From a virus, in the IMG/VR virus record IMGVR_UViG_3300044617_001156: a stretch of 64,000 bases of DNA. One strand, written 5' to 3'. How positions within the stretch are numbered: the stretch's first letter is position 1; every line of letters begins with the position of its first letter. The position numbers and the translations under genes were made by a program. The notes under the pieces are model-generated. The model searched no databases. It saw only the letters and a program-made list of their open reading frames with translations, and was not told the origin of the DNA. Shown here in pieces: positions 35,208-57,054 of this stretch.

Positions 35208-35235
35208 TGGGCCCTGTAAAGTGTCCTAGTAATGT
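35208..35235 (+). promoter_or_regulatory. 28-bp GGGCCC element, copy 1
   Basis: TGGGCCCTGTAAAGTGTCCTAGTAATGT. Confidence 0.85.
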
Positions 35236-35391
35236 GAGAGACAGACTATCAAGGTCACTTCTTTCACTGGTACACTTGACGGCAGTTCTCTGATCCGTTA
35301 AAATAAACAAATCAAACGACACACTGTTTGATCCCGCAATCTTCTTCTAACATACTGAAGAGGCAAGCAAAAACACATTTTTAATTTTCTT

Positions 35392-36558
35392 ATGCAAAGC
35401 AATCAAAATTTCTGTGTTCCCCTGAAGGAACGAATTTCACTTCTTGACTATTCGCTGATGCTTCAGAAGTTTAGAGCATTCAACGCACCACGTCAGTTTC
35501 AACGTCCTATCGCATGGGCTCCCGCAGATAGGAAAAAATTCTTCAACTCTATGTTGATGAACCGAGTAGAAGGCACTTTTGTCTTTGTTGATGTTACTCG
35601 TAGTATTAAAAGACTAGAAGATCTTGGAGAATATTCAGGAAAAACATATTCCTTCTTCAAGAAATTTCTTGATAGTGGATATAAGTACGTTGTTCTTGAT
35701 GGGAACAATCGTATGTCCTTTATGCAATCTCTATTCTCTGATGAATATACAATTCCCGAAGGAACGTATGAATTCATGAATGATGAACTTGGAGGAACCA
35801 TCTCTTCCTTTACTGTAAGGAAAGATAAACAAAAGTTTTCAGACCTTCCCGAAAGGGTTAGTTCGGTTCTCAAAGAACGACAAGCTTCCATTAGTCTCTA
35901 CACTCAAATTTCATTTGATGGAATGTCTGAAGTGTTCCAGAATGTGAATAGTGGTGTTCCACTGAACGCACAGGAACTTCGCAATGCTTATTCTACGGAG
36001 TGGGCTGATTACGTTCGCGAAATTTCTGATGAAATCAGCAGTCTTCTTGCAAAACTCTTCAAAGACCACCGTTTCCGTCTTAAGGGTGAAGAGTGGGTGG
36101 TAGATTGTCTTGACTTTGTTCTAAATGCAGTTACAACTGACCCAGACACCGAAGAAACAACTTGTAAAGGAATTTCTCAATCAACAAAAAACAAACTTTA
36201 TCTGAGTAATTTCCTCTGTGAGGACGATCAAAGTTTTTATTTCGATAAATTTGTTGAAATGATGGACTTCATTTCTCAGATGATTGATGATAAAATTTTG
36301 GATGTGAAAGTTCTTACACGTTCATCCGCAGTACAAAATCTTTATTGGATGATGTGTAATGGTGTTGATACTTACGAACAAGCAGTTGCTGCAGTTGAAG
36401 CACACGAAAAAGCATACAAAAATAAAGATCTCACCTACACATGCGGTGACGATGAAAAAACATTCAAAGAATGTTGTAATGGTATGAGTAAAGAAAACCT
36501 TGAATTTAGGCACATCATTTTCTCTGAAATTCTAGAAAAACTTCCTGTTGCGGCTTGA
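35392..36558 (+). CDS. DUF262 (ParB-like/GmrS-type) domain protein
   Basis: FQRPIAW, VLDGNNR and F..VNSGVPLNAQELRNA motifs; promoter TTGACG-17-TAAAAT at 35276-35304. Confidence 0.75.
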   Translation: MQSNQNFCVPLKERISLLDYSLMLQKFRAFNAPRQFQRPIAWAPADRKKFFNSMLMNRVEGTFVFVDVTRSIKRLEDLGEYSGKTYSFFKKFLDSGYKYVVLDGNNRMSFMQSLFSDEYTIPEGTYEFMNDELGGTISSFTVRKDKQKFSDLPERVSSVLKERQASISLYTQISFDGMSEVFQNVNSGVPLNAQELRNAYSTEWADYVREISDEISSLLAKLFKDHRFRLKGEEWVVDCLDFVLNAVTTDPDTEETTCKGISQSTKNKLYLSNFLCEDDQSFYFDKFVEMMDFISQMIDDKILDVKVLTRSSAVQNLYWMMCNGVDTYEQAVAAVEAHEKAYKNKDLTYTCGDDEKTFKECCNGMSKENLEFRHIIFSEILEKLPVAA

Positions 36559-36615
36559 ACCAATTCTAAAACCGTCACACTGGGGTCCTAAACGACCCCT
36601 TTTCTGTTCTATAAT
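36558..36615 (+). promoter_or_regulatory. Early promoter, long class
   Basis: AACCAATTCTAAAACCGTCAC followed by TATAAT at 36610. Confidence 0.65.
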
Positions 36616-36636
36616 AACTCTGTTACAAACCAATCC

Positions 36637-37875
36637 ATGAAATCCAATCAGTTCATCTACGTCAAACCGAAAAACTCTGAAGCAAAAGAAGTTTTTCAAT
36701 ATGATATGCGAGGACTTCATTCCTGCAAAATTCTTCAAAGGAATGGAACTGATATGCTTGTAAAGTCCATTGCTGGTGACTTTTACTTTCAAATTGATAC
36801 TGATAACGACAAAAACTGGGAACTGCTGAAATGAAAAAACTACTTGCTCTTCTTGTTTTCCTTCCGATTTCAGTATCAGCACAAGAAATTTATGCTATCA
36901 ATGTGAATAAGATGTGTGCTGCGATTGTAGGAATTCCTTATGCGTCTGATAACTTTAGTGATAAGGAATGGGAAGAATTTAAGGATTGTATGAGGTTCGT
37001 GGAGCAGTTTAAAGATTGATTAAATAGTGGTAGAATAGAAGAAGACCAATGGTTGCTCTATTACTTACGACAACCATATCCTGCTCTGAGGCCTTGAAAG
37101 TTCTTTCGCGTATTACAAGCGTTGTAGGACTTACAAGACAACAGAAGATTGAACTTATTCAAACAGTTCAACAGTCCATTCCTACGTGTCCCTTAAAAGT
37201 TGTTCCTAATGAAAGACCAAAACCCAGTAACTGATTTTGAAACTTCTGATGTTAAGTGGAACCGTGGGCTTGACCTGTTTATTGAAAGCGTTCATAAACC
37301 TGATAGTGACCTTAGACAGTGCGCTCATAACCAAAAGTGTTACAATGAACTCTTGGAAGTTCGGGAAACTGTGTTAGAATATCTGAAAACACTAAGAAGA
37401 TGAGTTCTTATACAGTATACTTTATTATCTTTGCTTGTATTGGATATTTAATCGCCACAGACCAAAGTGTCGCCAAAGCAGTTGTTTTTCTATCACAACT
37501 TGCACGTTTTGAATATGAGAAATTGAAGTGGTGGTTGATTATGAACCCAAAATCTCCCTGGGGTAGATATTCAATTCACCGTAGGTCTAATCAGTTAGCA
37601 AAAGAACTGATGAAAGAACTTGAAGATAAAACAAAATGAAGTATCTACCCTTACTTTTGGTACTGTTAGCATCTCCCGCAAATGCTATCACTTGGAACCA
37701 ATTCTGGAGACCATTTAACAATGGTTCATACTACCGTAGTCCTGTTTATTACAACTACACTCCAATATGTACTCAACTTGTTTATCACCGTGAGTATGTA
37801 CCTGGCGATGGTTTTAGATATGGATACGTAAGAACTTGGTCTGAAAGAGTAAGAGTTCCCTGTGGTTATCATTAA
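36637..37875 (+). other. Run of six small hypothetical ORFs (36637, 36831, 37049, about 37209, 37400, 37636), several with signal or TM-like N-termini
   Basis: Tightly packed plus-strand ORFs with overlapping start/stop codons. Confidence 0.6.
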
Positions 37876-37906
37876 AACCTAGATAATGTGAACCTCTAAT
37901 AAAGGT

Positions 37907-38383
37907 ATGACTGGAATAAAAATCCAACCGAATACAACGGTTTTAGTATTAAACGCAAGTTATGAACCTCTGAATTTCTGTTCTGGGCGTAGAGCAGTTG
38001 TTCTCTTGTTGAAAGAAAAGGCACAGTTTCTTTCTTCAAGAGTTATACGTCTTTTGAATTATATTAGGATACCTTTCTCTGCCCTAACATCTCATAAACC
38101 CTCACGTAGTGCGATATACAAACGTGATGGAAATAAGTGTGCTTATTGTTCTGCTACAAAAAATCTAACGGTAGACCATATAATTCCTAAATCACGTGGT
38201 GGTGAAGATACTTGGGCTAATTTAACGATTGCCTGCTCCAAATGTAACACTAAAAAGGGGAATAGAACCCCAGAAGAATGTGGAATGGTCTTAAGAACTA
38301 AACCCAGAGCACCTTCTAATAAATTAATATTCTATATGGATGTATCTAAAGTTGATGAGTGGAGACAGTATTCTTTTGGTTAA
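37907..38383 (+). CDS. HNH endonuclease
   Basis: VLVLNASYEPL, RD...CAYC, TVDHIIPKSRGG..W.N....C..CN..KG motifs. Confidence 0.9.
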   Translation: MTGIKIQPNTTVLVLNASYEPLNFCSGRRAVVLLLKEKAQFLSSRVIRLLNYIRIPFSALTSHKPSRSAIYKRDGNKCAYCSATKNLTVDHIIPKSRGGEDTWANLTIACSKCNTKKGNRTPEECGMVLRTKPRAPSNKLIFYMDVSKVDEWRQYSFG

Positions 38384-38498
38384 GTTATAGTTATGTTAAG
38401 AAACCCACACAAACCTCCTAGATAGTGGTAGAATAATGAGGTCATACAAATGAACTGAAAATTATTTGCGATGATATTCTTTGTGCGTGGAGGTTATT

Positions 38499-38672
38499 AT
38501 GCACAATTTAATTTCTTACAATCAACTTGTATCTTGGAATCATTTGGAAAAAACGATTGATGAATATGTTGAACAAGATGAACTAATTAATGATTATTAC
38601 CAATGTATAATTGAATGTAGCGATAAACAGCAAGAATGTAAACGCATATGTAGGTCTATTCTATCACTATAA
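38499..38672 (+). CDS. Small protein with four C-terminal Cys (cyanobacteria/cyanophage type)
   Basis: GGAGG RBS before the ATG at 38499; DYYQCIIEC...ECKRIC. Confidence 0.65.
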   Translation: MHNLISYNQLVSWNHLEKTIDEYVEQDELINDYYQCIIECSDKQQECKRICRSILSL

Positions 38673-38728
38673 ACCAGTTTAACAACCGCCCACCACCTCT
38701 TGACTTCAGCGTCAAGAGGTTTTATAGT
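38671..38728 (+). promoter_or_regulatory. Early promoter, long class, with -35 inside a hairpin
   Basis: TTGACT-17-TATAGT; ACCTCTTGAC/GTCAAGAGGT 10-bp inverted repeat. Confidence 0.8.
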
Positions 38729-38750
38729 AGGTTCATAGAAATCCAAAGCA

Positions 38751-39215
38751 ATGACCCACAAAGCAACTCTCAAGGTTAAATTTGATACGGAATGGACTTC
38801 TACTGGTGGAGTTTATGACGATGAAACTCTTCCAGAGGAGCATTATACTTTTGAGATTCCTGTTGAGGATATTAACAGTATGCAACTGTTCCGCTTCTTT
38901 GGAACTATTGCCCGCACGATGGGACATAATGATTTTGGTATTATGAAAGGTGCTTGTTCGCTCGCATTTAATGATATGCGTAGTTTTGAGGATATGAAAA
39001 AGGTTGCTGACGAGTATGACTTGTATCTCTCAGAAGAATATGCAAACAAAGTTATTCCTCTGGAAAACAAGATTTATGATTTGGAAAAACAAGTTCGTGA
39101 CCTGAAAGCAAAACTATCACGCTGTGAAAATCCCGATGCTCCCGATTATACAGAGGAGGAAATGAATGCGATGAAGATACACAGAGTTGTAGGCGAATAT
39201 GTAGAAAACTTTTAA
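38751..39215 (+). CDS. Hypothetical protein
   Basis: ORF directly downstream of an early promoter. Confidence 0.65.
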   Translation: MTHKATLKVKFDTEWTSTGGVYDDETLPEEHYTFEIPVEDINSMQLFRFFGTIARTMGHNDFGIMKGACSLAFNDMRSFEDMKKVADEYDLYLSEEYANKVIPLENKIYDLEKQVRDLKAKLSRCENPDAPDYTEEEMNAMKIHRVVGEYVENF

Positions 39216-39221
39216 GTACAT

Positions 39222-39279
39222 AAACCAGTTTAAAATCCGTCCATTTGCCCTTGACTTTCGCGGTCAAGGGTTTTATAGT
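39222..39279 (+). promoter_or_regulatory. Early promoter, long class, with -35 inside a hairpin
   Basis: TTGACT-17-TATAGT; CCCTTGAC/GTCAAGGG inverted repeat. Confidence 0.8.
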
Positions 39280-39304
39280 AGGTACATACAAATCCAGCAA
39301 ATGA

Positions 39305-39526
39305 ATGTCTGAACGTTCTGAAAACTTTATGAAAGCAGTATGGGAAGCACGAAACACTGGTGCTGATACTGAGGAAAAATTAGTTGCAACTATTCTTCGT
39401 TTAGTTGCTGATAATGTAAAGTTTTACAATGCTCAAAACAATGTCGTTGTCCTAGATAAAAATGATGTACTTGAGCTCTCTAATGAAATTGAACAGACAT
39501 CTCAAGAAAAAAATGAAGAGGTTTAA
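39305..39526 (+). CDS. Hypothetical protein
   Basis: First ORF after the promoter. Confidence 0.6.
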   Translation: MSERSENFMKAVWEARNTGADTEEKLVATILRLVADNVKFYNAQNNVVVLDKNDVLELSNEIEQTSQEKNEEV

Positions 39527-40495
39527 AGTCCTTGAATTTAAACATCGTGAAGACTGGGGACACGATGTATATCTAACGTTTCTTAAAGGAAGACACTTTT
39601 CCTTTATTCAACTTTCACTTGGATGGACTAACTTCCCTGGATATCCACATCTACAAGTATCCTCTGGGTGTGGTAAATTGTTTAGTATTATCTTTTGGTG
39701 CTATAAATTTGCACTTGATTTTGAAATTCTAGGACGTACTTGGAGGATTTAAATGTCTGACTTAACTCATGAAGAAATGCTTTCTATTGCTGCTCAAAGA
39801 GAACTCATAAACGAAGCACTTGAAGAACTCAACGCAATCGTATTAGGAGGACAAGATACTAGAGAGTTTTATCTCTCAGTGTCTCATATTCGTAATGTAT
39901 TAGAAAGATTGAAATGACTTATAAAGTTAGATATACTGGTTTCGGTCCATACAAAAATGTTCTTGAACCAAATCAAATTCTAACAGTGAAAGAGATGCTA
40001 CCTTATGCTTGGCACGAAAACTTTACTTTTGAGGAAGTGGAAGGTGAGTATCATACAATTTTCTTTGAGGATGTGGTAGAATGAACTACATAAAACAAAA
40101 AGGAGAACAACAATGAAAATCGGAGACGTAATGCTTGCCGCAATCTGTGGTCTGGTTATTATCACATCAGCAGTTTATGTTGATAGACACTATTCAACTT
40201 CTAATGTAGAACAGAAAGCAAAATGAATGTATCACCAGGTATGAGAAACCTATTACAGAATGTATTCACACCCAGAAGAACACTATGGGGTATTTGGAGA
40301 CGCTGAAATGACTGAAACTAACACTGAAACCAAGTACATCGTCCATTGGAATAGTATGCCTCCCTACCGAAAAGAAGCAGAATTCCCTACTCTTGAAGTT
40401 GCTGAATTTTGGTACAATAAGAAACTAGACCAAGACAAAGACCCTGATATGTACGTCAAAGAAACAACCACTTCGGTTACTTCTACAAAACTGCG

Positions 40496-40762
40496 ATGAC
40501 CCTTGAAGAAATCCTAGAAGAATACGGACAGGAAGTATTAGACAAATACTATGAACTCTTCCCAGATAAGAGTATTGAAAAGTTTCCTTATAGGTTCTGT
40601 GGTCCTGTTGGTGGATATGATGACTTTCTATTAGATGCTTATTATTCAACAGGAAGTGATGAACTTGATGAAACACTTGAAACCTTTGAAAATGGAGTGT
40701 TTCAAGAGTATTACTATTATGATGAATTGACTGCTACGGGTTTCGTATTTTACAATGATTGA
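40496..40762 (+). CDS. Very acidic small protein, possibly ArdA-like
   Basis: About a quarter D/E, aromatic-rich, ends GFVFYND. Confidence 0.5.
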   Translation: MTLEEILEEYGQEVLDKYYELFPDKSIEKFPYRFCGPVGGYDDFLLDAYYSTGSDELDETLETFENGVFQEYYYYDELTATGFVFYND

Positions 40763-41210
40763 TACTCTCAAGAAGTATAAAGTCAGAAAGTCTTATTTGA
40801 AAAGAGAAGTCTTTCATCAGGCAATCGCAGTTGCTATGGCGTCTGATGCTCCAAAGAAGATGTCTGCTGTACTTCTAGACAAGAGAAATAAAGTAATCTC
40901 TACGGGTCTTAACTCTTATGAGATTACACATACCCAGCAGTTTTATGCTGCCGTTATGGCTGCAAAGAAGTATAGGCAACCAAGTCTGAAGAAGAAGATA
41001 TACTTGCACTGTGAAATCAACTGTTTGTTAAAGGCACGAAAGCAGGGTAACAAACTGATTATCTGTAGAATTGGAGGACACGGAGGAAACGAACTTAGGG
41101 ACAGTTTCTGTTGTCCTATATGCTACTTGTATATTAAGCAAAACTGCCCTACAATCAAAGAAATTCATTGGAGTACAAACGACCAAGAATTTCTATACAT
41201 TCAAATCTGA
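40755..41210 (+). CDS. Zinc-dependent deaminase-fold protein
   Basis: HCE (HxE) and CCPIC (CxxC) motifs with the cytidine-deaminase spacing; STGLN. Confidence 0.7.
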   Translation: MIDTLKKYKVRKSYLKREVFHQAIAVAMASDAPKKMSAVLLDKRNKVISTGLNSYEITHTQQFYAAVMAAKKYRQPSLKKKIYLHCEINCLLKARKQGNKLIICRIGGHGGNELRDSFCCPICYLYIKQNCPTIKEIHWSTNDQEFLYIQI

Positions 41211-42926
41211 TAAAATGATTGATACTTCACTATTCCCACATCCAGGTCATCCAATCAGGTTAGAGTTTGGTGAGAAGAAAAATGGTACAATCTGTTGGTT
41301 CTCGTGTGAGGAACACTTAAAAAGATATCTAACCAGATATGGGTTAGATGAGAAAAAAGTAAAAATTGATTATCGTGATGAAAAACCAAAAAAGCGAACA
41401 AGAAAGGCAAAACCAAAAACTTAATCTTGTTATTGCCTTGACACAAGTTGAAAGTCTTGTTAAACTATTGGAGGGTAATGAGTATAAAAAGCACTTTTAC
41501 CAACACCTAATCCCCATACAAGTTGAATTGAACCGACAATTAAGTCATTATGGATAAAAAGTTTTACGATGATGATGCGTTCTATGTTGAGCGCAAACGA
41601 TGGGGCACTTGGCAATCTCACTATCCTGATGGTAAGGGTATTATTACTTCACTGACTGAAGAACTTTGTATTTCTGCAACACGATGGTATCTTAAAGGTC
41701 TTCAGGAGGGTTTTGATAAAACGCAATCTTATTCCGGAGAAGTCGGCGGAAAACTCTAAATATGTGTGCCTAACACACATCTAATGGAAGATTTTAAGGC
41801 AGGAGATCGTGCAATCTTCATTGGTTGCATTGATGAACAAGTTTCCTGGGGTTCTAATGATGATCCTAGGAAAGTAATGATAGAGGGAGACATCTACACG
41901 ATTGAAAAGGTAGAACCTCACTCATATCACACGAAACTTTATTTTCGTGGAATAAAAGGTAAATTTAATTCTGTTTGTTTTAAAAAGTATGACTTTAAGA
42001 ACTTTTGTAGATAAGAATGGTAATTCCTGGGAATGGGAAGAAACGCCTGAGACCATTGAAGCACTGAAACAACTTCATCAAACTGTAAAACAAAATGAAA
42101 ATCCGATTGAACCCAAACCAGCAAATGTGGGCTAATGTATTCTCCTGTGCGGTGAGAAGGTCTAATGAATGTTTTGAAGAAAAAGACCTTGACCGCCACG
42201 CAAGAGAACATACAACAGTCGTATTAGCACTCCAAAAAGGTGAAGAGTTTTGGCGTGAATTATTATGAGTGATACTGACCCCACATCTCCCTGGTATGAA
42301 TTTATTTCATACTGTCGCTGCTGTGAGAGTTTAGGTGTCCCTATTCGCTTACAATCGTTTATGCGCTATCAGCAGTATTTGAAGGAGATTGGTTTGGTAT
42401 GATTAGTAAGTTTATTCAATGGTTTATCTCTCCAAATGAAGAACCAATTATTGAAGATATCTATTCCAAACTCATTGAACTACAAGAACGCATTGAAGCA
42501 CTTGAAGTAGAGAATGTAGAGAACAGTAACTGCTTCTATGAACTTTCGAGTTCCATTGATGCTGTTGATGCACGTATAGATATCATTACTGTTGAAGGAT
42601 TTAAGAACGATGTATGAAAATTTATCACAATATGAACGAGCACTCGCAAGGTTTGGTGATAAAGTGGGTCTCATTGCAGGACTTGAAATCGCACATAAGA
42701 TGTCACCAGAAGATGCTTATCAACAAATCAAGGAACTTTACAAAGAACTTAAGAAACTCCGTAAGAAAGAAAGGAGAATCTGGGGAAACACTGGAATCGG
42801 GACTACGAAAGTGCTCTAACTGTGAGGAAATAAAACCACTTGACGAACAGCACTATCAACGTGTAAAATACTTCCGTGATGGTTTCTCTTACTACTGCCA
42901 CGACTGCTCTAAACCCAAACCAAGAA

Positions 42927-43493
42927 ATGACTGACTTTGATTACAAAAAGTATTCTCTTGAAAATCTAGAGAATTGGCTTCATGATGCGATGTCTTCTGG
43001 TGGAGCAACACCACATGAAATCTATGATGTAATTGTTGGTGTAGTAAAAGAAACCCACGAGCATCATAAACAAGAAGCAGAACAGGCAGAAGAACTTCTT
43101 AATCTTCTGAATAGTGGTTGGACTAAGGAAGAAGTTCTAAAGGATAGAGAGTACTATGAACCTTCAGGTACATTTACTTTCTCATCCTGTAGTGCTGATG
43201 ATACTTCGCCCGAATGTATGACTTCTTGGAATGATTTCTGGAGTGATGATAAGATTACATCCATTCACAATACAGAAGACGGAGACTTATTCGCTCACAA
43301 TGAAGATAAGGTAGTTAAGTGGCGTCTTCCTGTAGAGGTTGATAGTGTGAGTGGTGAGTATTATTTCACTCTACCTGAAGACCTGTTAGAGCAAACTGGA
43401 TGGAAAGAGGATGATGCTCTTCACTGGGTAGATAATGGGGATGGGTCATTTACACTTGAAAGGGTAGAGGAATCCGAAGAGACAGAACTCTAA
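42927..43493 (+). CDS. Protein with C-terminal AbrB/SpoVT-like DNA-binding domain
   Basis: YFTLPEDLLEQTGWKEDDALHW...GSFTL; start reassigned to the ATG at 42927. Confidence 0.6.
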   Translation: MTDFDYKKYSLENLENWLHDAMSSGGATPHEIYDVIVGVVKETHEHHKQEAEQAEELLNLLNSGWTKEEVLKDREYYEPSGTFTFSSCSADDTSPECMTSWNDFWSDDKITSIHNTEDGDLFAHNEDKVVKWRLPVEVDSVSGEYYFTLPEDLLEQTGWKEDDALHWVDNGDGSFTLERVEESEETEL

Positions 43494-44024: not shown

Positions 44025-44049
44025 AGGAGCACTTCGGTGCTCCTTTTTT
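44025..44049 (+). terminator. Rho-independent terminator
   Basis: AGGAGCAC-TTCG-GTGCTCCT followed by a T run. Confidence 0.9.
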
Positions 44050-44051
44050 AT

Positions 44052-44079
44052 TGGGCCCTGTAAAGTGTCCTAGTAATGT
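44052..44079 (+). promoter_or_regulatory. 28-bp GGGCCC element, copy 2
   Basis: Identical to copy 1. Confidence 0.85.
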
Positions 44080-44094: not shown

Positions 44095-44505
44095 ATGGGT
44101 ACCAGAAGCCGTATCGGCCTCCAACTTTCTGATGGTTCTATCCTTTCCATCTACAGCCATTTCGATGGATATCCCGAGTTCAATGGAGTAAAACTTGTAG
44201 AGAACTTCAATACTCTGGATAAGGTCAAAGAGTTGATTGATCTTGGTGATATTAGTTGCCTCTGGACGAATGTAGGTTGGAGTAATGAAACTCTAGAGCA
44301 GACTGGACCCCTTCCTTATAGTGGTCGCGGTGAAGATTGCCCCCCTCGCCTTGATGCTGACCTGTGTGAGTATCTGCTTCCTGATGGAGCAGAAGAGTAT
44401 CACTATATCTTCCGCAATGGTGAGTGGGTGTGCTACGATATGCACCAGTTTGATAACACTAAACTTCCTGAAGTTGTTGAAATCCCTGTGGAGGTAGCAG
44501 CATGA
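44095..44505 (+). CDS. Conserved phage hypothetical protein
   Basis: MGTRSRIG...IYSHFDGYP family motif. Confidence 0.7.
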   Translation: MGTRSRIGLQLSDGSILSIYSHFDGYPEFNGVKLVENFNTLDKVKELIDLGDISCLWTNVGWSNETLEQTGPLPYSGRGEDCPPRLDADLCEYLLPDGAEEYHYIFRNGEWVCYDMHQFDNTKLPEVVEIPVEVAA

Positions 44506-44902: not shown

Positions 44903-45499
44903 TTAGATTATACTGTATCGCTTCAACTCTGTGTAATCAACAGTTCTCATATAGGGCATTTCATATCCACGTATGATGTGTAATTGCCCTGCTACTTCAT
45001 TCCAAGTGTAGTTATGGATTTCTTCTCCTACACTCCTCCAGTGGTAATTGAAACCGCGAAATCCCCACTGATAAACACCTAAAACCTGAATGAGTGGATG
45101 TTGGTCGTAAAACACCTTATTGGTTGATGGTACAACTCTTTCTTTAGATCGATTTCTGATTGTCTTCGCATTGTAAATGAAAGTACAGAACATTCCAACA
45201 TCAGGTATGATTTCAGTATCATCAAAGATATTGATGATTTCCAACATTATTTCCTCTGGGTCTGTAACACCAACTAGGCGTTGCTTCAGCATTTCAACTC
45301 TTGAATTTGATTTGCTGACGACATAATCAGTATCGCTCTTGATGTACTTGATGAGGTTATCTTTGGATAACTTTGTATAATCTGCCGTTAAGTTGCCCTT
45401 TGCACTATCTCTATGATAGACTGTATAACGTCTAGCAATTTGCATCAATTCTGACTTGGAGTATTGCTCTAATGGTTTTTCGTGACCTGTGAGTTCCAT
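44903..45499 (-). CDS. Late protein with a DNA-end-protector (T4 gp2)-like C-terminal part
   Basis: F.YNAKT, YDQHPLI and GFRGFNYHW motifs; minus-strand ATAAATA at 45522-45528. Confidence 0.5.
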   Translation of the reverse strand: MELTGHEKPLEQYSKSELMQIARRYTVYHRDSAKGNLTADYTKLSKDNLIKYIKSDTDYVVSKSNSRVEMLKQRLVGVTDPEEIMLEIINIFDDTEIIPDVGMFCTFIYNAKTIRNRSKERVVPSTNKVFYDQHPLIQVLGVYQWGFRGFNYHWRSVGEEIHNYTWNEVAGQLHIIRGYEMPYMRTVDYTELKRYSII

Positions 45500-46665: not shown

Positions 46666-46922
46666 AGCACTTGGTGAGAAGGCAAGTAAGTGTGATAAGG
46701 AATCCGATAGAGTTGCAATCATTCGCACCTTTATCTTTGTAACGTATTTGATTACTAATGCCTTCATTGTTGCTGGTGTAATTCGTCATTGGAATGATGA
46801 AACTAAAGTGCAAGTTATAATTGATTCTTCAATACTCCCTGAGTATCAACCACCACCACGAAAAGGTATCAATAAACCATTTGAATTTGAATAAAAATAA
46901 ATAATCAGAAAGTGCTGAAGCA

Positions 46923-47286: not shown

Positions 47287-47314
47287 TGGGCCCTGTAAAG
47301 TGTCCTAGTAATGT
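47287..47314 (+). promoter_or_regulatory. 28-bp GGGCCC element, copy 3
   Basis: Identical to copies 1 and 2. Confidence 0.85.
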
Positions 47315-47330: not shown

Positions 47331-47456
47331 ATGGATTGGTTTGACGACATCCAGGTTGAAGAACTGGAAAACTTTGATTTCATTGAAGAAGATGTGATTG
47401 AAGAGAGTGATAACAAATCATTCAATTCATATCTAAACTCCAACACCGATTATTGA
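47331..47456 (+). CDS. Acidic micro-protein (41 aa; not in track)
   Basis: MDWFDDIQVEELENFDFIEEDVIEESDNKSFNSYLNSNTDY. Confidence 0.6.
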   Translation: MDWFDDIQVEELENFDFIEEDVIEESDNKSFNSYLNSNTDY

Positions 47457-48312: not shown

Positions 48313-48402
48313 TTCATCCAATCAACAAACAGTCCACTAGCACTCTCAGATTGACCTCTGGGGGTGCTATTTTAGTCTTTAGATACCAAACCACTGAGAA
48401 CC

Positions 48403-48603: not shown

Positions 48604-48631
48604 TGGGCCCTCTAAATTGTCCCTATAGTAT
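48604..48631 (+). promoter_or_regulatory. 28-bp GGGCCC element, copy 4
   Basis: TGGGCCCTCTAAATTGTCCCTATAGTAT. Confidence 0.8.
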
Positions 48632-49927
48632 ATGATGAACCCGATGAAACTCCAACCACGGCCCCATCAAGAACGCGGCGATGCTGCGATGCAGAAATAT
48701 CCTAAGGGTCAGTTGATTTACCCCACGGGCGGCGGTAAGACCCTGAATATGATTATGGATGCTGTGCGTGAGTTTTCCGAGGAAGTTGTCTTTGAAAAAG
48801 AGTATCATCTCGGAGAGTTTGTTGGTGGAACCACAAATCGTAAATTGATTGTTGTAGTTGCTCCACGTATTTTGCTTACAGAGCAGCTTTCTTCCGAGTT
48901 TCTGGAGTTTATCACTAATGCTGCTGTTCTTCACGTACACAGCGGTGAAACTAGTCACAAATCTACCACAAATCCCGATGAAATCGATGAGTGGGTCTGT
49001 GATAATGTAGACAAGCATTGTCTCATCTTCACCACTTATAACTCTCTGGAGCGTCTTCAGGATGCTGATGTTGCAGTGGATACAATATATTTCGACGAAG
49101 CCCATAATTCAGTCAAGCGTAACTTTTTCCCTGCAACTGAGCACTTCGCTGCTGAGGCACGTCGTTGCTACTTCTTCACTGCTACCCCGAAACATTCCCT
49201 TGCTGTAGGTAAACCAGGCATGAATGATTCGGCAGTTTATGGTCAGGTAATCTGCAAAGTTCCTGCTCCTGAACTGGTTGCTGGTGGGTTCATTGTTCCC
49301 CCCAAAGTTATCGTCAAGCAACTGGAGATGGTTCAGGGTAAGCAGACCAACTTTGACCGCGACGCTGAGAATCTGCTGGAAACCATTGACGACAATGAAG
49401 TCAGCAAGATTCTGATTTGTGCTAAGGCAACCAAGCAGATTGTTTCGCTGGTTTCTGAGACTGACTTCTGTTCTGAGTTGGAGTCTCGCGGTTTCTCTTG
49501 GATGTACATCACGGCAAAGACTGGAGCTGTGATTGACGGCAAGAAAGTGAACCGCGAAGTATTCTTCGACACTCTATCTGCCTGGGGCAAGGACAACGAC
49601 AAGAAGTTTGTTGTTCTTCACCACTCCATCCTCGCAGAAGGTATCAACGTCAGCGGTCTGGAAGCAGTTCTCTTCCTCCGCAACATGGACTTCATTGGTA
49701 TTTCCCAGACCATCGGACGTTGCATCCGACTGCATCACGATGACGCCAAAGGTCTTCGCGATGGTAGCATCAAACCAGGCAACCTTGGTCAATACACCAA
49801 GAGTTTCGGTCTTGTCTGTGTTCCGGTGTACAGCAAGGTTGGTATCACCACCGCCAAGGCAGTTCAATCGGTTGTAGACACCATCTTCCAGAAGGGAGAA
49901 CCCGCCATCAGTGTAGTTCGCAGGTGA
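48632..49927 (+). CDS. Superfamily 2 (DExH) helicase
   Basis: PTGGGKT Walker A, DEAH, TATP, EGINV and QTIGRCIR motifs. Confidence 0.9.
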   Translation: MMNPMKLQPRPHQERGDAAMQKYPKGQLIYPTGGGKTLNMIMDAVREFSEEVVFEKEYHLGEFVGGTTNRKLIVVVAPRILLTEQLSSEFLEFITNAAVLHVHSGETSHKSTTNPDEIDEWVCDNVDKHCLIFTTYNSLERLQDADVAVDTIYFDEAHNSVKRNFFPATEHFAAEARRCYFFTATPKHSLAVGKPGMNDSAVYGQVICKVPAPELVAGGFIVPPKVIVKQLEMVQGKQTNFDRDAENLLETIDDNEVSKILICAKATKQIVSLVSETDFCSELESRGFSWMYITAKTGAVIDGKKVNREVFFDTLSAWGKDNDKKFVVLHHSILAEGINVSGLEAVLFLRNMDFIGISQTIGRCIRLHHDDAKGLRDGSIKPGNLGQYTKSFGLVCVPVYSKVGITTAKAVQSVVDTIFQKGEPAISVVRR

Positions 49928-49950: not shown

Positions 49951-49974
49951 ATCAGGGTGAAAACCCTGATTTTT
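49951..49974 (+). terminator. Terminator-like hairpin
   Basis: ATCAGGGT-GAAA-ACCCTGAT followed by TTTT. Confidence 0.7.
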
Positions 49975-50224: not shown

Positions 50225-50252
50225 TGGGCCCTTGAAAGTGTCCCTATAATGT
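50225..50252 (+). promoter_or_regulatory. 28-bp GGGCCC element, copy 5
   Basis: TGGGCCCTTGAAAGTGTCCCTATAATGT. Confidence 0.85.
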
Positions 50253-50285
50253 AACCACCATTCCGTGTCGATCACGGCATATTAA

Positions 50286-51984: not shown

Positions 51985-51986
51985 AC

Positions 51987-52014
51987 TGGGCCCCTGAAAG
52001 TGTACCAGTAGTGT
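51987..52014 (+). promoter_or_regulatory. 28-bp GGGCCC element, copy 6
   Basis: TGGGCCCCTGAAAGTGTACCAGTAGTGT. Confidence 0.85.
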
Positions 52015-52030
52015 AGTTCACACGGTCCGC

Positions 52031-52276
52031 ATGACCCGCACCCGTAAGCAAACCGCAAATGTTGCTGCTGAAGTGAAAGTGCCTGAGGTTCTCATCACTC
52101 GTCAGCAATACATTCAAGACATTAAGGTTCGCTGGGAAATCCATCAGTATGAAGTCAACAAACTTCGTGAAGATGTAACCAAGTTCAGTCAAACTGTTTC
52201 TCCTTATGTGAAGCAAATGATTGACTACACGACCGAAAAGTATCAACAACTGTTCGCTCGTCGTCTGACTGCTTGA
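52031..52276 (+). CDS. Hypothetical protein
   Basis: Lies between element copy 6 and a terminator. Confidence 0.65.
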   Translation: MTRTRKQTANVAAEVKVPEVLITRQQYIQDIKVRWEIHQYEVNKLREDVTKFSQTVSPYVKQMIDYTTEKYQQLFARRLTA

Positions 52277-52285
52277 TGATACACC

Positions 52286-52312
52286 AAGGCACCATCACTA
52301 GGTGCCTTTTTT
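52286..52312 (+). terminator. Rho-independent terminator
   Basis: AAGGCACC/GGTGCCTT stem followed by a T run. Confidence 0.8.
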
Positions 52313-52326
52313 ATTGAAAATGTTAG

Positions 52327-52354
52327 TGGGCCCTGTAAAGTGTCCTAGTATTAT
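52327..52354 (+). promoter_or_regulatory. 28-bp GGGCCC element, copy 7
   Basis: TGGGCCCTGTAAAGTGTCCTAGTATTAT; ATG at element position 27. Confidence 0.85.
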
Positions 52355-53249
52355 GAAGAACACCCATCTCAATCATCCCGAAGATCAGATTCTTACAGGT
52401 GATCTATCTGTGCTGGATTGGATGTATGAATCTGATAGTTTCATCTCCACAAAAATTGATGGTGCTCCGGCTGTAGTGTTTGGAACTGACCCTGAGACTG
52501 GTAAGTTCTTCTGTGGGACAAAATCAGTTTTTAACAAGAAGAAAATCAAGGTAAATTACAGCATTGAAGACATTCTCCGTAATCACGGTAACACTCCTCG
52601 CGTTGCAGAGATTCTTATTGCCTGCTTCAACAATTTCCCCAGGATTGATAACATCATTCAAGGTGATTTCATCGGATACGGTGGAAACAGCACTTATCGC
52701 CCCAACACTATCACCTATCACTTTCCTAGTGTAGTCAAAGAAGCAATCATCTTTGCTCCTCATACGACCTATTCTGGTACAAATCTTCGTGAATGTGTTG
52801 CATCCTTTGGTGCATCAGTTCCTGAGTGTGAGAATGTGAAATGGGTGCAACCTGATGCATCTATCTGTCCTTATCGTGAGGATATTGAAGATGTGTGTAA
52901 GTTTGCAAAGCAAATGAGCACACTGTGTGAGTTCGTGAATGATAAGCAAGCAACAGAACTCAAGAAAATCATCAATTCTTACATCCGTGAGGGTAAGGAG
53001 GTTGACGAACATGAAATTGCAGAAAATTATGATGTTGATATCAACCTGCTGCGACTTCACAAACTCGTTGCATCAATCAAGACCGATTTGTTCTTCTTCA
53101 TCTCTGATGACGATAGCATCTCCTGTGAGATTGATGGTAAAGAGTCTGCGCATGAAGGGTATGTAATGACGAATCGTTTTGGAACATACAAGATTGTTGA
53201 CCGCACTCAATTCAGCCGTGCTAACTTTACACTTCAAAAGAACTGGTAA
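52353..53249 (+). CDS. Ligase/nucleotidyltransferase-like protein (DUF6267-like)
   Basis: NTHLNHPED, TKIDG (KxDG), QGDF, EGYV and KIVDR..FS motifs; start reassigned to 52353. Confidence 0.65.
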   Translation: MKNTHLNHPEDQILTGDLSVLDWMYESDSFISTKIDGAPAVVFGTDPETGKFFCGTKSVFNKKKIKVNYSIEDILRNHGNTPRVAEILIACFNNFPRIDNIIQGDFIGYGGNSTYRPNTITYHFPSVVKEAIIFAPHTTYSGTNLRECVASFGASVPECENVKWVQPDASICPYREDIEDVCKFAKQMSTLCEFVNDKQATELKKIINSYIREGKEVDEHEIAENYDVDINLLRLHKLVASIKTDLFFFISDDDSISCEIDGKESAHEGYVMTNRFGTYKIVDRTQFSRANFTLQKNW

Positions 53250-53256
53250 TGATTAG

Positions 53257-53284
53257 TGGGCCCTTGGAAGTGTCCTAGTAGTAT
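53257..53284 (+). promoter_or_regulatory. 28-bp GGGCCC element, copy 8
   Basis: TGGGCCCTTGGAAGTGTCCTAGTAGTAT; ATG at 53283 (position 27). Confidence 0.85.
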
Positions 53285-53443
53285 GAGAACCACACACCGA
53301 TTCCAAAGTTTCAAAGAAGCACTCAACTTTCTGATGAGTGAGTTTCAAATGAGCAATCAGCAAGCAACTCACTTCATCTGGGACAATCAGTTCACTATGG
53401 GAACTGACCGTGCTATTTGGATTACTGAACCTACCAACTGATT

Positions 53444-53797: not shown

Positions 53798-54057
53798 CTT
53801 ACTCTAACCTTTCAAAGATTCGTCCGAAACTGAGAACATCAGGTAATGTAACAGGTAACTTCGGCCGCCCAAAATCAAAAGCAGGTTCATCACTGAATGA
53901 GATTGGAATGAGTACTAAAGAAAGCATTAAATGTGCTACACAGGATGAGTATCTGAATCGTCTTTATTCTGCATTTGATAATACTGATGATGCAAAGTTA
54001 AAAAAGTTTCTGTATCAAGAGATTCGTAAGATTCTTATCACACAAGGAAAGTGGTGA
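53794..54057 (+). CDS. Hypothetical basic protein
   Basis: ATGA overlap with the upstream ORF. Confidence 0.6.
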   Translation: MTYSNLSKIRPKLRTSGNVTGNFGRPKSKAGSSLNEIGMSTKESIKCATQDEYLNRLYSAFDNTDDAKLKKFLYQEIRKILITQGKW

Positions 54058-54064
54058 GAAATAG

Positions 54065-54092
54065 TGGGCCCTTGAAAGTGTCCTAGTAGTAT
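54065..54092 (+). promoter_or_regulatory. 28-bp GGGCCC element, copy 9
   Basis: TGGGCCCTTGAAAGTGTCCTAGTAGTAT; ATG at 54091 (position 27). Confidence 0.85.
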
Positions 54093-54339
54093 GAACAACA
54101 CTACCGACCGCAAGTTTCACAACATTTCCCTTGAAGATCGTGAAATGTTTGCTTACAACAACTATCAAGAGCGTAAGAAACAGCAACTCGCTGCAGTTGC
54201 ACCTGAACTGCGTATCAAATACTGCTTCGAGTTTCTGAAAGGTTACGTCGCTGAAGGTGATACTGAGATGGCAAAGCGTTGCTATGATGGTATTGCTAAG
54301 TACAGCGAAGTTCTTGACTATTCCGAAGCACACTTCTGA
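54091..54339 (+). CDS. Hypothetical protein
   Basis: Starts within element copy 9. Confidence 0.65.
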   Translation: MNNTTDRKFHNISLEDREMFAYNNYQERKKQQLAAVAPELRIKYCFEFLKGYVAEGDTEMAKRCYDGIAKYSEVLDYSEAHF

Positions 54340-54585
54340 TTCACAATGACTGGTGGCATTATCTTCCTGATCGCTTATGCAATGGGCGCAGGACATGTTT
54401 TTCTGATTCGTTATCTCTCACGTAAAGGTATTATTTGATTATGAAATACGAAGTCACTTTATACGTTTCTGGACGTAACTTCAAGGACATTGTAATTGCT
54501 AATTCACCAACAGATGCAAGAGTTACAGCTGAAGCACGCAATCCTACAGCACGTGTTGTAGCAGTCAACGGAACGTTTAAGTAAC

Positions 54586-54613
54586 TGGGCCCCCGAAACT
54601 GTACCAGTAGTAA
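54586..54613 (+). promoter_or_regulatory. 28-bp GGGCCC element, copy 10
   Basis: TGGGCCCCCGAAACTGTACCAGTAGTAA. Confidence 0.8.
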
Positions 54614-54629
54614 CACCACACATCAAACC

Positions 54630-54827
54630 ATGAACTACTACAAAATCACTGAAATTGACTTTGACTTTGGCGGTGAAGATATCACTCAAGAAGAGATTGA
54701 TACTATCGTCACTGAAACAAAAGGTTGTCTCTGGACTTCACCAACTGAAGAAGATCTAGCAGACATCATCTCAAACAACACTGGTTGGTGCATTAACTCT
54801 CTGTCCTATGATGTGATTGCTGCCTGA
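54630..54827 (+). CDS. Hypothetical acidic protein
   Basis: IDFDF..E..L.D.IS..TGWCI pattern. Confidence 0.65.
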   Translation: MNYYKITEIDFDFGGEDITQEEIDTIVTETKGCLWTSPTEEDLADIISNNTGWCINSLSYDVIAA

Positions 54828-54970
54828 TGATTGAAACTGATTTCTTTATTCTCACTCATGATCAATACCATCAATTCAATTCTGAAGCATCAGAACTTGG
54901 TTTAAGTATTGATTATTATCTCAGTGAGTTTATGGACATTGATGGACCATGGGTCATCACTGATTAAAAC

Positions 54971-54998
54971 TGGGCCCCTGAAACTGTACCAGTAGTAT
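54971..54998 (+). promoter_or_regulatory. 28-bp GGGCCC element, copy 11
   Basis: TGGGCCCCTGAAACTGTACCAGTAGTAT. Confidence 0.85.
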
Positions 54999-55020
54999 AA
55001 CCACTCACCACTGAAACCAA

Positions 55021-55338
55021 ATGACCCGCCTGATTGAACGCCAAATGAATGAAGCAATCCTGAAAGAAAAGGATTGGAAAAAGGATAACACTGAAGTTAT
55101 CAACTACAGCAACTGTTCTGATGTGTTTCTGTATGGTAATCTGATTGCTCGCATTGGCGAAACCTGGTTAGAGTTGTTCGATGGAGGTTATCAATCAGTA
55201 ACTACAAAGTCTCGGCTAAATGCTATTCTCGCTGCTCATGGTGCAGACAATGAGTATGTGTTTCAGAAGAAAGGTCAGTGGTTTGTTAACTACGAAGGCG
55301 GACCAATCCCCTTCTTCTCCGGTATGCGCCTGAACTGA
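55021..55338 (+). CDS. Conserved phage hypothetical protein
   Basis: LYGNLIA, TTKSRLNAIL and VFQK...WF motifs. Confidence 0.7.
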   Translation: MTRLIERQMNEAILKEKDWKKDNTEVINYSNCSDVFLYGNLIARIGETWLELFDGGYQSVTTKSRLNAILAAHGADNEYVFQKKGQWFVNYEGGPIPFFSGMRLN

Positions 55339-55976
55339 ATGTTGTTTAATCTAGTTCTGTTCTCATCCATCATTGTTCGCTATCACTTTCACCACTGATG
55401 ATTGAACTCCTCATTGCATCAACATTCGCTACCGCTCTGTCTTCGACTATCATCGGACAATCACTCATTGGACCTAATCTTCTTCGGACTGATTATCTCA
55501 CTGACCAAAATCAAATCATCACGATTCAAGAGACAATCACAGAACTCCCAGAAGACCAACCGTGTAACCTATGACTAAGTTTCTCATTGGAACAATCACA
55601 GGTATTATACTCTCAACAGTAGGATTCCAAGGGTTAGCAAACCTAGGTAATCGTACTATCACAACCATCGAATCATTCGCTCAATCACAACAATGAACAA
55701 CGATCAAAAGGATTCAATGCTTGCAAACATCCTAGAGCAAGTACAACAACAAATCGTTAATCTAGTAGAGAACGATCTAATCGAAGAGTCTTACTCTCTA
55801 TACAAAGAATGGGAAGAACATTTCAACAATAATATCACTGAACTAGAAATCATTACTATCAATGATCTGACTGCTATTTGATAGTAACAAGAGGAAGGGA
55901 GTTTGCCTCATCTAAGTAAACAAAGTGACTTCTGTAAAGTAGAGATAATTCCTATTCATTTGGTGATGTGGATTAT

Positions 55977-56007
55977 AGAGAGGGGAGTGGTGTCCTCTCT
56001 CTTTTTT
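55977..56007 (+). terminator. Rho-independent terminator
   Basis: AGAGAGGGGA/TCCTCTCTCT stem followed by a T run. Confidence 0.75.
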
Positions 56008-56082
56008 ATTGTCTAAAAACCTTGTTTTAATGCTTAAATGTTAGGAAATCAATAAAAAAAGGCTATTTTAAATATATCTGAG

Positions 56083-56125
56083 TTTTCAACAGCCTTGTGG
56101 AAAAGTGTGTGGAATATGTGGAAAA
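56083..56125. promoter_or_regulatory. Cluster of four DnaA-box-like 9-mers next to an AT-rich tract
   Basis: TTTTCAACA at 56083, TGTGGAAAA at 56096, TGTGGAATA at 56108, TGTGGAAAA at 56117. Confidence 0.65.
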
Positions 56126-56377
56126 ATACCCTTATGAAGTCTTATAATACCCTTTAAAGCCTCATAGACCTTGTGATCTTACGTTGCGTCAGCCTAACAC
56201 ATAAGTTCTCACACGTCAACCCCCACTTTCCCGGAATATCATAAAATCCCCACACAACTCCCAGAATACTCTGAGACCCCTCTAAAATCGCCTGTAAGGA
56301 CACTAAATACCAACACTTGACGTATGTCTCATTATCCCTTATAATTGCCTCATACAACACATTCAAGGAGAACACTT

Positions 56378-56551
56378 ATGTCGGTTGCCTACAGTCAAGC
56401 ACAGAAGCAGCGTTATCGTATTACCCTTGACATTTCAGCATATCCTGATTTCGATCCACACAACATCAACTGGAATAAGTTATTTGAACTCGAAGGATCT
56501 GAGAACTGTGAGGCATATGTAGAAGACCTAAGTCGTCCTGATAAGTGGTGA
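56378..56551 (+). CDS. Hypothetical protein
   Basis: Promoter TTGACG-17-TATAAT at 56317-56345; AAGGAG RBS; ATG at 56378; terminator at 56581-56604. Confidence 0.7.
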   Translation: MSVAYSQAQKQRYRITLDISAYPDFDPHNINWNKLFELEGSENCEAYVEDLSRPDKW

Positions 56552-56610
56552 TATAAGAGCATACAATAAGACTCCTTAAGAGACTCCTATAAGGGGTCTT
56601 TTTTAATGGC

Positions 56611-56639
56611 TTGACATACCTTACAGATCCTTGTATAAT
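56611..56639 (+). promoter_or_regulatory. Consensus sigma70 promoter
   Basis: TTGACA-17-TATAAT. Confidence 0.85.
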
Positions 56640-56723
56640 ATCTTTGTGGAGATTGATAAGTGCATTAAGAGCTTATACAATGAGCCTACCGAAGGTAATC
56701 ACGAACGTAGTGAGTGATTGAAT

Positions 56724-56751
56724 TGGGCCCCGTAAAGTGTACCGGTAGTAT
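56724..56751 (+). promoter_or_regulatory. 28-bp GGGCCC element, copy 12
   Basis: TGGGCCCCGTAAAGTGTACCGGTAGTAT; ATG at 56750 (position 27). Confidence 0.85.
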
Positions 56752-57019
56752 GACCACCACACTCACACCAATGACTAACACTCTCCAAGCAAAAGTACAG
56801 GACACCACCTATAACGGTTGGACTAACTTCCAGACTTTCAATGTTGCACTCTGGATCAACAATGATGAGGGTCTATATGATATCGCCCGTGAGACAGGTT
56901 CCTATCAGGACTTCGTTGCATATATCAGTGAGTTCATGTTGCAAACTCCTGATGGTGTAAGGTTCAATGACCCCGCTGTGAATGTGATCGAACTGAATAG
57001 CGAAGTGTTCGATTTCTGA
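56750..57019 (+). CDS. Conserved phage hypothetical protein
   Basis: YNGWTN..T.NVALWINND and TPDGV motifs. Confidence 0.7.
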   Translation: MTTTLTPMTNTLQAKVQDTTYNGWTNFQTFNVALWINNDEGLYDIARETGSYQDFVAYISEFMLQTPDGVRFNDPAVNVIELNSEVFDF

Positions 57020-57026
57020 TGATTAG

Positions 57027-57054
57027 TGGGCCACGTAAAGTGTCCTAGTAATGT
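57027..57054 (+). promoter_or_regulatory. 28-bp GGGCCC element, copy 13
   Basis: TGGGCCACGTAAAGTGTCCTAGTAATGT. Confidence 0.85.

Follow-up and report, generated by a model that had tools for sequence, protein, structure and literature searches.

T4-like cyanophages are among the most abundant viruses of the sea and of lakes. To our knowledge, they do not possess the proteins Alt, Mod, MotA and AsiA, with which T4 redirects the RNA polymerase (RNAP) of its host, and how their early programme is switched on is therefore still a question. A locus of the IMG/VR virus record IMGVR_UViG_3300044617_001156 bears on this question. The stretch of 64,000 nucleotides analyzed here (referred to as the window) carries thirteen copies of a short element between positions 35,208 and 57,054, all at gene boundaries, and it has to be asked what such a repeated boundary signal does. 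The answer favored here, with a probability of about 0.6, is that the element would be a phage-specific, factor-dependent promoter combined with a translation-start cassette for non-late genes, which secondarily acts as a recombination seam in the manner of the promoter-early stem-loop (PeSL) cassettes of other T4-type phages. The element provides a sharply defined and testable handle on the early programme, as it combines a conserved core with a lineage-specific box that calls for a reader, and as transcripts, if they are to include its built-in start codon, cannot start later than element position 27. Homologous versions in the cultured phages S-SM2 and P-TIM68 make the question of early transcription directly testable.

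Anatomy, start codon and spread of the element

A sequence-only reading of the window had proposed a self-contained element of 28 bp at gene boundaries. A search with its consensus, allowing at most 3 mismatches and compared with 100 dinucleotide-preserving shuffles, returned exactly the 13 copies that had been listed, all of them on the plus strand, and none in the shuffles. The copies are all situated between open reading frames (ORFs), are confined to 35–57 kb and head groups of small non-structural genes. The other descriptive claims were confirmed as well: the copies at 35208, 44052 and 47287 are identical at 28 of 28 bases, position 27 is a purine in 13 of 13 copies, an in-frame ATG occupies element positions 27–29 in four of them (52353, 53283, 54091 and 56750), and terminator-like hairpins precede two copies (44052 and 52327). 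An upstream stop codon is found 1–7 nt from ten copies (35208, 47287, 48604, 50225, 51987, 53257, 54065, 54586, 54971 and 57027).

To place these copies in a wider sample, IMG/VR was scanned with the core pattern. This yielded 90 stretches, usually with several copies on the same strand each, and 316 unique copies, and a sequence logo was built on 300 unique copies. Anatomy and conservation were observed directly in this set. While the location at gene boundaries stands, the length of 28 bp does not: conservation reaches from about −9 to +36, and the unit of approximately 40 nt consists of one or more upstream stop codons, a 5′ box (A-C-TGGGCCC), a core (AAAsTGT..C..TAGTRT) and a tail. A stop codon, T-R-A, is present at −9 to −7 in about 74% of the 300 copies, and an A at −1 in 97%. 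T1-GGGCCC7 is invariant and is followed by AAA at 11–13, TGT at 15–17 and C19; the 3′ part of the logo reads T23-A24-G25-T26-R27-T28-R29-A30, then A33 and A36. Information content is around 2 bits at G2–C7, A11–A13, T15–T17, T23, A24, T26 and T28, with positions 8–10 and 14 being free. Within the hexamer, T23 is conserved in 99% of copies, A24 in 97%, G25 in 87%, T26 in 99% and T28 in 95%, and position 27 is a purine in every unique copy. Conservation that is position-specific to this degree is typical of recognition by a protein rather than of mere homogenization of repeats.

An imperfect dyad (GGGCCCT-n4-AGTGTCC) had also been read into the element, but no conserved structure underlies it. 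RNAalifold gave no consensus pairs and a fold energy of −15.6, no lower than that of shuffled sequences (−16.7), and a search of 34–64 kb against Rfam returned nothing. Positions 8, 18 and 20 do co-vary, dividing the copies into two subtypes (CCCT..TGTCCT and CCCC..TGTACC), although they do so as identity and not as complement. Further downstream, a G-poor, CA-rich tract occupies positions 29–70. It is anchored on the element whichever start codon serves, which fits a feature of the mRNA 5′ end rather than one of the start codon. Copies without an ATG at position 27 (ATG27) have a G-poor, CA-rich leader of 15–23 nt that is devoid of a Shine–Dalgarno sequence.

The built-in start codon, likewise observed directly, is present in 165 of the 316 unique copies, 157 of which have no earlier ATG in their longest downstream ORF. 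Of the copies with ATG27, 85 contain a further in-frame ATG at positions 39–54 (a single copy has two), and not one contains an out-of-frame ATG there; in the copies without ATG27, starts at 42–50 fall in all three phases. In 258 of 291 copies, a real ORF begins with the first ATG past position 21, compared to 103 of 291 at a control position. Among the 59 protein families headed by the element, ATG27 is used always in 23, sometimes in 11 and never in 25, i.e., by 34 families altogether. One example is DUF6267, the N-terminus of which (MKN-x-H-L-x-H-P-E-D) begins at ATG27 in the window and in S-SM2, while in P-TIM68 its ATG follows the element after 17 nt; position 1 of the Pfam profile aligns to residue 3. 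In the 82-aa ORF at 54091, the match to the PHROG profile begins before the second methionine. Judged by these reading frames, ATG27 is a genuine, translated start codon in about half of the copies, with a constrained frame, and the mRNAs concerned must then contain position 27. A minimal start-stop ORF, ATG-TAA, is held by positions 25–30 of the TAATGTAA variants (35208, 44052, 47287, 50225 and 57027), and occurs in 17 of the 19 unique copies having an ATG at position 25.

According to PHROG and tblastn matches, the window stems from an uncultured T4-like cyanomyovirus and encodes tail fibers and baseplate wedge proteins. Its gp6 is about 59% identical to that of P-TIM68, S-SM2 and Bellamy (PHROG/tblastn) and its helicase about 60% identical to that of S-SKS1; a DNA-level search found no isolate phage close to the window. 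The gene order that it has in common with S-SM2 and P-TIM68 runs from the tail-fiber region through a long plus-strand block of small genes to the helicase, more small genes and gp25/gp6. The element array sits in the block of small non-structural genes, which is syntenic with the small-gene block of both phages.

No exact copy of the element was found among 50,697 records of isolate phages, but diverged relatives are present in these two. The version of S-SM2 is AAGGGGGGTCG-N3-AAAG(C/T)GTCCC-TATAGT(G/A)T, with GGGGGGTCG as 5′ box. It has nine exact core matches in that phage, all on the plus strand, at 42.7–57.1 kb in the syntenic block, and the type was found only in S-SM2 and in one virus from a marine single-cell amplified genome (SAG). 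The version of P-TIM68 is (CACTAAAT)GTTAGTTACC-TCT-AAATTGA-N3-ATTAATGTAA, with GTTAGTTACC as 5′ box. The core common to the window lineage, S-SM2 and P-TIM68 is AAA-K-yG-w ... T-A-R-T-R-w-T; the 3′ two-thirds are shared between the lineages, while the 5′ 7–10 nt are wholly different. Within the window lineage, the 5′ box is invariant, though the genes of the contigs are only 70–85% identical. The element thus appears to be the version of one lineage of a composite gene-start cassette that occurs in several lineages of T4-like cyanophages. A search of 596 Gb of prokaryote genomes gave only 2 matches, both at chance level and none in cyanobacteria. This near-absence indicates that the element is phage-specific and not a copied host promoter, and mimicry of a host promoter was rejected on the same ground. 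A literature search by motif strings retrieved no relevant paper.

Proposed promoter activity and its alternatives

Promoter activity, the transcription start site and the existence and origin of a reader are what we infer from this anatomy. The unit would function as a phage-specific promoter of the non-late small-gene block, recognized by an RNAP together with a factor other than the host primary sigma in its normal −35/−10 mode. The 5′ box would be the recognition site of this putative reader, and initiation at R27, or a few bases upstream of it, would give leaderless or near-leaderless mRNAs, the 5′ end of which would be formed either by the start codon A27-T28-G29 itself or by the CA-rich leader. 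The terminators are in line with this. The order terminator, element, DUF6267 gene is found in the window and in 11 related loci, hence in 12 loci. Because the terminator ahead of DUF6267 is conserved, and because copy 2 (44052) abuts its terminator without room for another promoter, a start within the element is the simplest explanation.

The window has other gene-start signals as well. Late-type ATAAATA motifs have 14 of their 15 plus-strand occurrences at 4–33 kb, mostly 20–45 nt upstream of structural genes (examples on the plus strand, within 4308–32688, are those at 4308, 9033, 11838, 13938, 15049, 21438, 27943, 29744 and 32688), and the small-gene block contains a single one, at 46897. 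Host-like TTGACx-N17-TATAxT sites are located between the genes of the block, at 35276, 38700, 39251, 42840, 45670, 56317, 56611, 57827 and 58465, some of them carrying the −35 inside a hairpin, as PeSLs do. As both kinds of signal are separate from the elements, the element represents a third, distinct class. It has no −35, and no TAnnnT is spaced as a start at 27 would require, which implies that its recognition differs from that of the nearby host-like promoters. The palindrome in the 5′ box points to the level at which this recognition may take place. Across the 64 kb, palindromes are avoided 2–4-fold (GGCC, 34 vs. 87 expected; GATC, 102 vs. 224; GCGC, 35 vs. 87), and CCCGGG is absent from the window. 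Nevertheless, every GGGCC or GGGCCC in the window is inside an element, as are 13 of the 34 GGCC sites, GGCC being four-fold avoided elsewhere. The TGGGCCC box is therefore kept against a general avoidance of palindromes, which suggests that it is recognized in duplex DNA. The sequence-only reading had taken position 27 as the start of leaderless mRNAs made from a non-sigma-70 promoter. ATG27, which about half of the copies contain and 34 families use, the two copies abutting terminators and the existence of separate TTGACA-N17-TATAAT sites support this proposal to the extent that a non-sigma-70 promoter with transcripts including or starting at position 27 fits better than an ordinary −10; the exact start stays presumptive.

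Several observations weigh against the favored interpretation. T23-A24-n-n-n-T28 is a textbook TAnnnT, from which a start near 35 is predicted, downstream of ATG27. No TAnnnT is found 6–7 nt upstream of position 27, where positions 14–20 read sTGTmCy without an A at −11, and the element accordingly does not show the TANNNT ending 6–7 nt before the A of the ATG that characterizes leaderless promoters of actinobacteria and Deinococcus. The window covers 64 kb of the genome, and all statements on absent genes hold within it; Pfam scans of approximately 35 of its small ORFs revealed no sigma, helix-turn-helix (HTH), MotA or AsiA-like domain. The ATG27 genes could also be translated from read-through transcripts, as terminators precede only 16 of the 316 unique copies. 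Furthermore, the element is not universal in the family, since Syn9 is without it: pattern and regex scans and a 14-mer mismatch census of upstream regions detected no comparable repeat in this phage, but only late ATAAATA motifs and host-like TTGAC-dyad-TGCTATAAT promoters. As to the secondary role in recombination, breakpoints are enriched only about 1.5-fold over ordinary gene junctions, a figure derived from non-independent contig pairs, and 24 of the 30 breakpoint clusters in window coordinates are not at elements (6 of 30 are).

The textbook hexamer is the basis of a different explanation, which would make the element an ordinary host-type promoter. TAGTRT at 23–28 would then be the −10 of the primary or a group-2 sigma factor, with a start at about 34–36, and the upstream bases would be an operator or activator site, likened to the T4 middle promoter with its MotA box at −30. 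In agreement with this, T23, A24 and T28 are conserved (99%, 97% and 95%), the hexamer is common to S-SM2, A33 and A36, each following a C, are conserved purines, the 5′ box is exactly at the place of a −35 or MotA-type box, and copies without ATG27 would obtain leaders of 7–15 nt. However, the same hexamer contains ATG27, the frame-constrained start codon of 34 families and of about half of the copies. A start near 35 would behead these genes, so that a plain sigma-70 promoter would not serve them, and the DUF6267 gene behind its conserved terminator would not be expressed from its own element. In addition, G25 (87%) and T26 (99%) exceed by far the conservation of sigma-70 positions −10 and −9, TTGACA is missing from the element though good TTGACA-N17-TATAAT sites are nearby, and about 4 of 10 P-TIM68 copies do not have T28. 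A host-type promoter is consequently regarded as a minority possibility. A shift of the −10 to positions 10–15 (kAAAsT; TAAATT in P-TIM68), with a start near 22, would be attractive for the window lineage and P-TIM68; it was not adopted, position 15 being a C in most S-SM2 copies. A different set of arguments concerns an RNA-level intercistronic signal of polycistronic early mRNA without promoter activity, such as a Shine–Dalgarno-independent translation (re)initiation site, an operator for the translational repressor RegA or a processing site from which 5′-AUG ends arise. The fixed geometry, from a stop at −9 to −7 through the element to a start at 27 or around 45, would suit such a signal, as would the fact that every copy is on the coding strand, the unstructured, G-poor tail and the retention of regA in cyanomyoviruses (PMC2984593; Syn9 gp160). 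Nonetheless, two copies and the conserved DUF6267 site come right after terminators, leaving no room for another promoter, and it is with copy 1 that the block begins, right behind the late structural genes. No RNA structure is conserved, the lineages have entirely different 5′ boxes although ribosome and RegA are conserved among them, and GGGCCC is kept against the strong avoidance of GGCC, which suggests recognition of duplex DNA. A purely RNA-level role is for these reasons thought quite improbable. The site selected by T4 RegA in SELEX (systematic evolution of ligands by exponential enrichment), which we take to be AAAAUUGUUAUGUAA, has a loose likeness to AAAUUG...AUGUAA of the P-TIM68 version.

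A more specific form of the promoter interpretation supposes a dedicated phage transcription system, in which a sigma-like factor or polymerase, delivered with the virion or made very early, reads the 5′ box and initiates at R27. This form is considered improbable. Should it apply, early mRNAs would have no leader and would depend neither on the −35/−10 pair of the host nor on a Shine–Dalgarno sequence, and box and reader would co-evolve, giving each lineage its 'private' promoters. The contiguous, conserved block of about 20–30 nt that encloses the presumed start is comparable to the promoters of single-subunit RNAPs of the T7 group. We know of no single-subunit RNAP gene in T4-like cyanophages, and none turned up among the scanned ORFs of the window, a scan that did not extend to giant virion proteins. 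The promoter of the RNAP of cyanopodovirus Syn5 is presumably TTGGGCACCCGTAA, which occurs twice in the Syn5 genome. A(T/C)TGGGCCC(T/C)GTAA (positions −1 to 13) resembles ATTGGGCACCCGTAA, present twice in Syn5 NC_009531 (4930 and 44798), and CCCTATAG, seen in some copies and in S-SM2, resembles CACTATAG of T7-group promoters. Both likenesses were spotted post hoc and may be due to chance.

Returning to the factor-dependent promoter favored here, its closest counterparts are found among T4-like phages. Like T4 middle promoters, the element combines a TAnnnT-like hexamer with a conserved box, other than a −35, about 17 nt upstream, and would need a phage factor. Unlike them, it has no TGCTT MotA box, and the start codon overlaps the putative −10. 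The MotA box (a/t)(a/t)TGCTT(t/c)A at −30 was searched for and is not in the element, and no Pfam match to MotA or AsiA was obtained among the scanned window ORFs; cyanomyoviruses are devoid of motA and asiA (PMC2984593). Sigma-54 was rejected as a candidate, as spacing and GC dinucleotide do not fit. A further counterpart lies in the cyanophages themselves. Doron et al. 2016, in ISME J 10:1437, reportedly described, in Syn9 and P-TIM40, a 'novel regulatory element' that T4-like cyanophages have at their early genes. This motif, reported to be unlike host promoters and both abundant and conserved in the group, precedes small, non-structural early genes, with host-like promoters belonging to another temporal class. 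The present element is probably related to this motif. A difference is that Syn9 has no copy of the present element, homologues being found in S-SM2 and P-TIM68 instead.

The element as a recombination seam

Cassette events and concerted evolution were observed in alignments of the window with the closest contigs, among them L001, L017, L028, L054, L069 and L076. In L069 and L001, unrelated DNA of 1.5 kb takes the place of the cassette between the copies at 50225 and 51987. At copy 5, identity with both contigs ends between element positions 7 and 8, and at copy 6, the sequence matches L069 again from the 5′ edge of the element on. At 56724, one more unit of element and gene, with a copy of the element on either side, is present in L017, L076, L054 and L028. 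The element at 54065 and its 82-aa gene are present in L076 and not in L017, the left break being exactly at 54065. The right end of this indel is at 54346–54441, an unlisted ORF of about 31 aa that encodes a hydrophobic peptide (MTGGIIFLIAYAMGAGHVFLIRYL..) and is conserved in L017. At the nucleotide level, crossover points vary, in and beside the element, as in homologous exchange. Orthologous sites can have different subtypes in different genomes, whereas non-orthologous copies within a genome are identical or more alike, and this greater likeness within genomes than between orthologues indicates concerted evolution. Stretches of about 40 nt of near-identity every 1.2 kb or so would offer patches for homologous recombination, by which element-plus-gene units would be inserted, deleted and exchanged and copies homogenized within a genome, as with PeSLs.

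A census of indel ends was made on contig pairs at least 88% identical, which were not de-replicated and are non-independent. Of the 204 ends, 91 lie at most 20 nt from an element, and both ends do so in 25 of 102 events. The background is an element at about 6% of positions and at about 30% of gene junctions. Around 45% of breakpoints are hence at elements, against some 30% of junctions carrying one, and the rest are elsewhere; most breakpoint clusters without an element are ordinary gene boundaries. The element is therefore a used seam, but not an exclusive one. Away from any element, identity to contig L068 drops from 98.6% (38569–43028) to 68% (43028–43198) inside the ORF at 42876–43493, a recent recombination boundary.

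The PeSLs with which this behavior can be compared are known from the T4-type phages RB49/phi1, T4/PST and KVP40/nt-1, and were not reported for cyanophages in the papers concerned (Arbiol et al. 2010, PMC2839356; Comeau et al. 2014, PMC4122927). Both kinds of element extend between genes from an upstream stop to a downstream start, are clustered in a hyperplastic region of small genes and ORFans, contain a run of G and C (GGGG..CCCC in PeSLs, GGGCCC here) and show indels or replacements of element plus ORF between close relatives, with crossovers inside the element. In contrast to PeSLs, which are about 100 nt long, the present element measures about 40 nt and has no near-consensus sigma-70 −35/−10 pair, as only TAGTRT fits and overlaps the start codon. 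It also lacks an internal stem-loop or terminator, a separate terminator being situated before 2 of the 13 copies, and a Shine–Dalgarno sequence; its start codon is often internal, and its 5′ box is lineage-specific. The element would thus be PeSL-like in function, while two defining features of PeSLs, the consensus sigma-70 promoter and the internal stem-loop, fail. This means that cyanophages, too, undergo modular shuffling of the PeSL style at repeated gene-start signals, though the element involved is built quite differently.

The geometry of stop, site and start had also suggested integron cassette arrays, in which attC-type sites for site-specific recombination delimit promoterless cassettes. 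With such arrays, the element shares its occurrence as a short repeat that separates one gene, or a few genes, from the next, and the presence or absence of element-plus-gene units between relatives. Pfam and PHROG scans of approximately 45 window ORFs gave no integrase or recombinase family, however, and the element forms neither an attC-like imperfect hairpin nor any consensus structure. Crossovers occur at differing points, about half of the breakpoints are away from elements, and the element carries start signals of the downstream gene, unlike attC. Site-specific recombination of this kind is highly improbable. Shuffling in the PeSL form, as had been proposed alongside the integron analogy, is borne out by the breakpoints inside the element and by concerted evolution; the integron analogy itself is not. 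The element is a lineage variant of something already known, and not an integron.

Copies and neighboring signals along the window

All copies are on the plus strand. Copy 1 (35208–35235), the first of the array, begins 2 nt after the stop of the last ORF of the tail-fiber region (34726–35205). It is followed by a host-like TTGACG-17-TAAAAT site (35276–35304) and then by the first gene of the block (35392–36558), which encodes a nuclease-type domain, GmrSD_N (DUF262). At 37907–38383 lies a gene for an HNH endonuclease. A terminator-like hairpin (44025–44044) with a T-run (the whole spanning 44025–44050, plus strand) ends 2 nt before copy 2 (44052–44079), which has the same sequence as copies 1 and 3 and leads, via a CA-rich leader, to a start ATG at 44095 (position 44). 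The only sizeable minus-strand ORF of the block, of 198 aa and without a family match, is at 44903–45499. Copy 3 (47287–47314) has its start ATG at 47331 (position 45). Copy 4 (48604–48631), of the CCCTATAGTAT type, lies ahead of the helicase gene, with ATGs at 48632, 48635 and 48644 (positions 29, 32 and 41). Copy 5 (50225–50252) is the left seam of the exchanged cassette, which comprises a 248-aa ORF and an N6/N4 DNA methyltransferase, and copy 6 (51987–52014) is its right seam, with a start ATG at 52031 (position 45).

The second terminator-like hairpin (52286–52308, with its T-run 52286–52314, plus strand) is 14 nt upstream of copy 7 (52327–52354), A27 of which (52353) starts the DUF6267 gene of 298 aa (52353–53249). 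Copy 8 (53257–53284) has ATG27 at 53283, opening a 52-aa ORF, and is conserved with copy 497 of L017. In copy 9 (54065–54092), ATG27 at 54091 starts the 82-aa ORF, which matches phrog_15469 from about residue 5. Copy 10 (54586–54613) ends in TAGTAA, with a start ATG at 54630 (position 45), and copy 11 (54971–54998) precedes a gene of the Kyano_Gp96 family starting at 55021 (position 51). Copy 12 (56724–56751) has ATG27 at 56750 and a second in-frame ATG at 56771. The last of the array, copy 13 (57027–57054), is a TGGGCCA variant with a start ATG at 57089 (position 63).

Among the host-like sites are two PeSL-like units (38695–38728 and 39247–39279), in which TTGAC in the stem or loop of a hairpin is followed by a T-run and then TATAGT. 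They are about 550 nt apart and about 82% alike, flanks included. A similar unit, with TAGTCT, is found at 48338–48379, and Syn9 has the PeSL-like type TTGACA-dyad-TGCTATAAT at 18649, 123738 and 162103. Beyond the array, a TTGACA-N17-TAGACT site with TG (57827–57855) is followed by about 90 nt of GC-rich hairpins without a long ORF. Within it, 57943–57995 is about 93% identical to unannotated DNA of S-SM2 (58835–58879) and Bellamy and holds an AGAGGT..ACCTCT hairpin, just upstream of a very basic ORF of 25 aa (58028–58105). The region 57827–58105, for which Rfam gave no match, may be a small RNA or a structured leader. It contains GTGGTT, the complement of AACCAC in several element tails.

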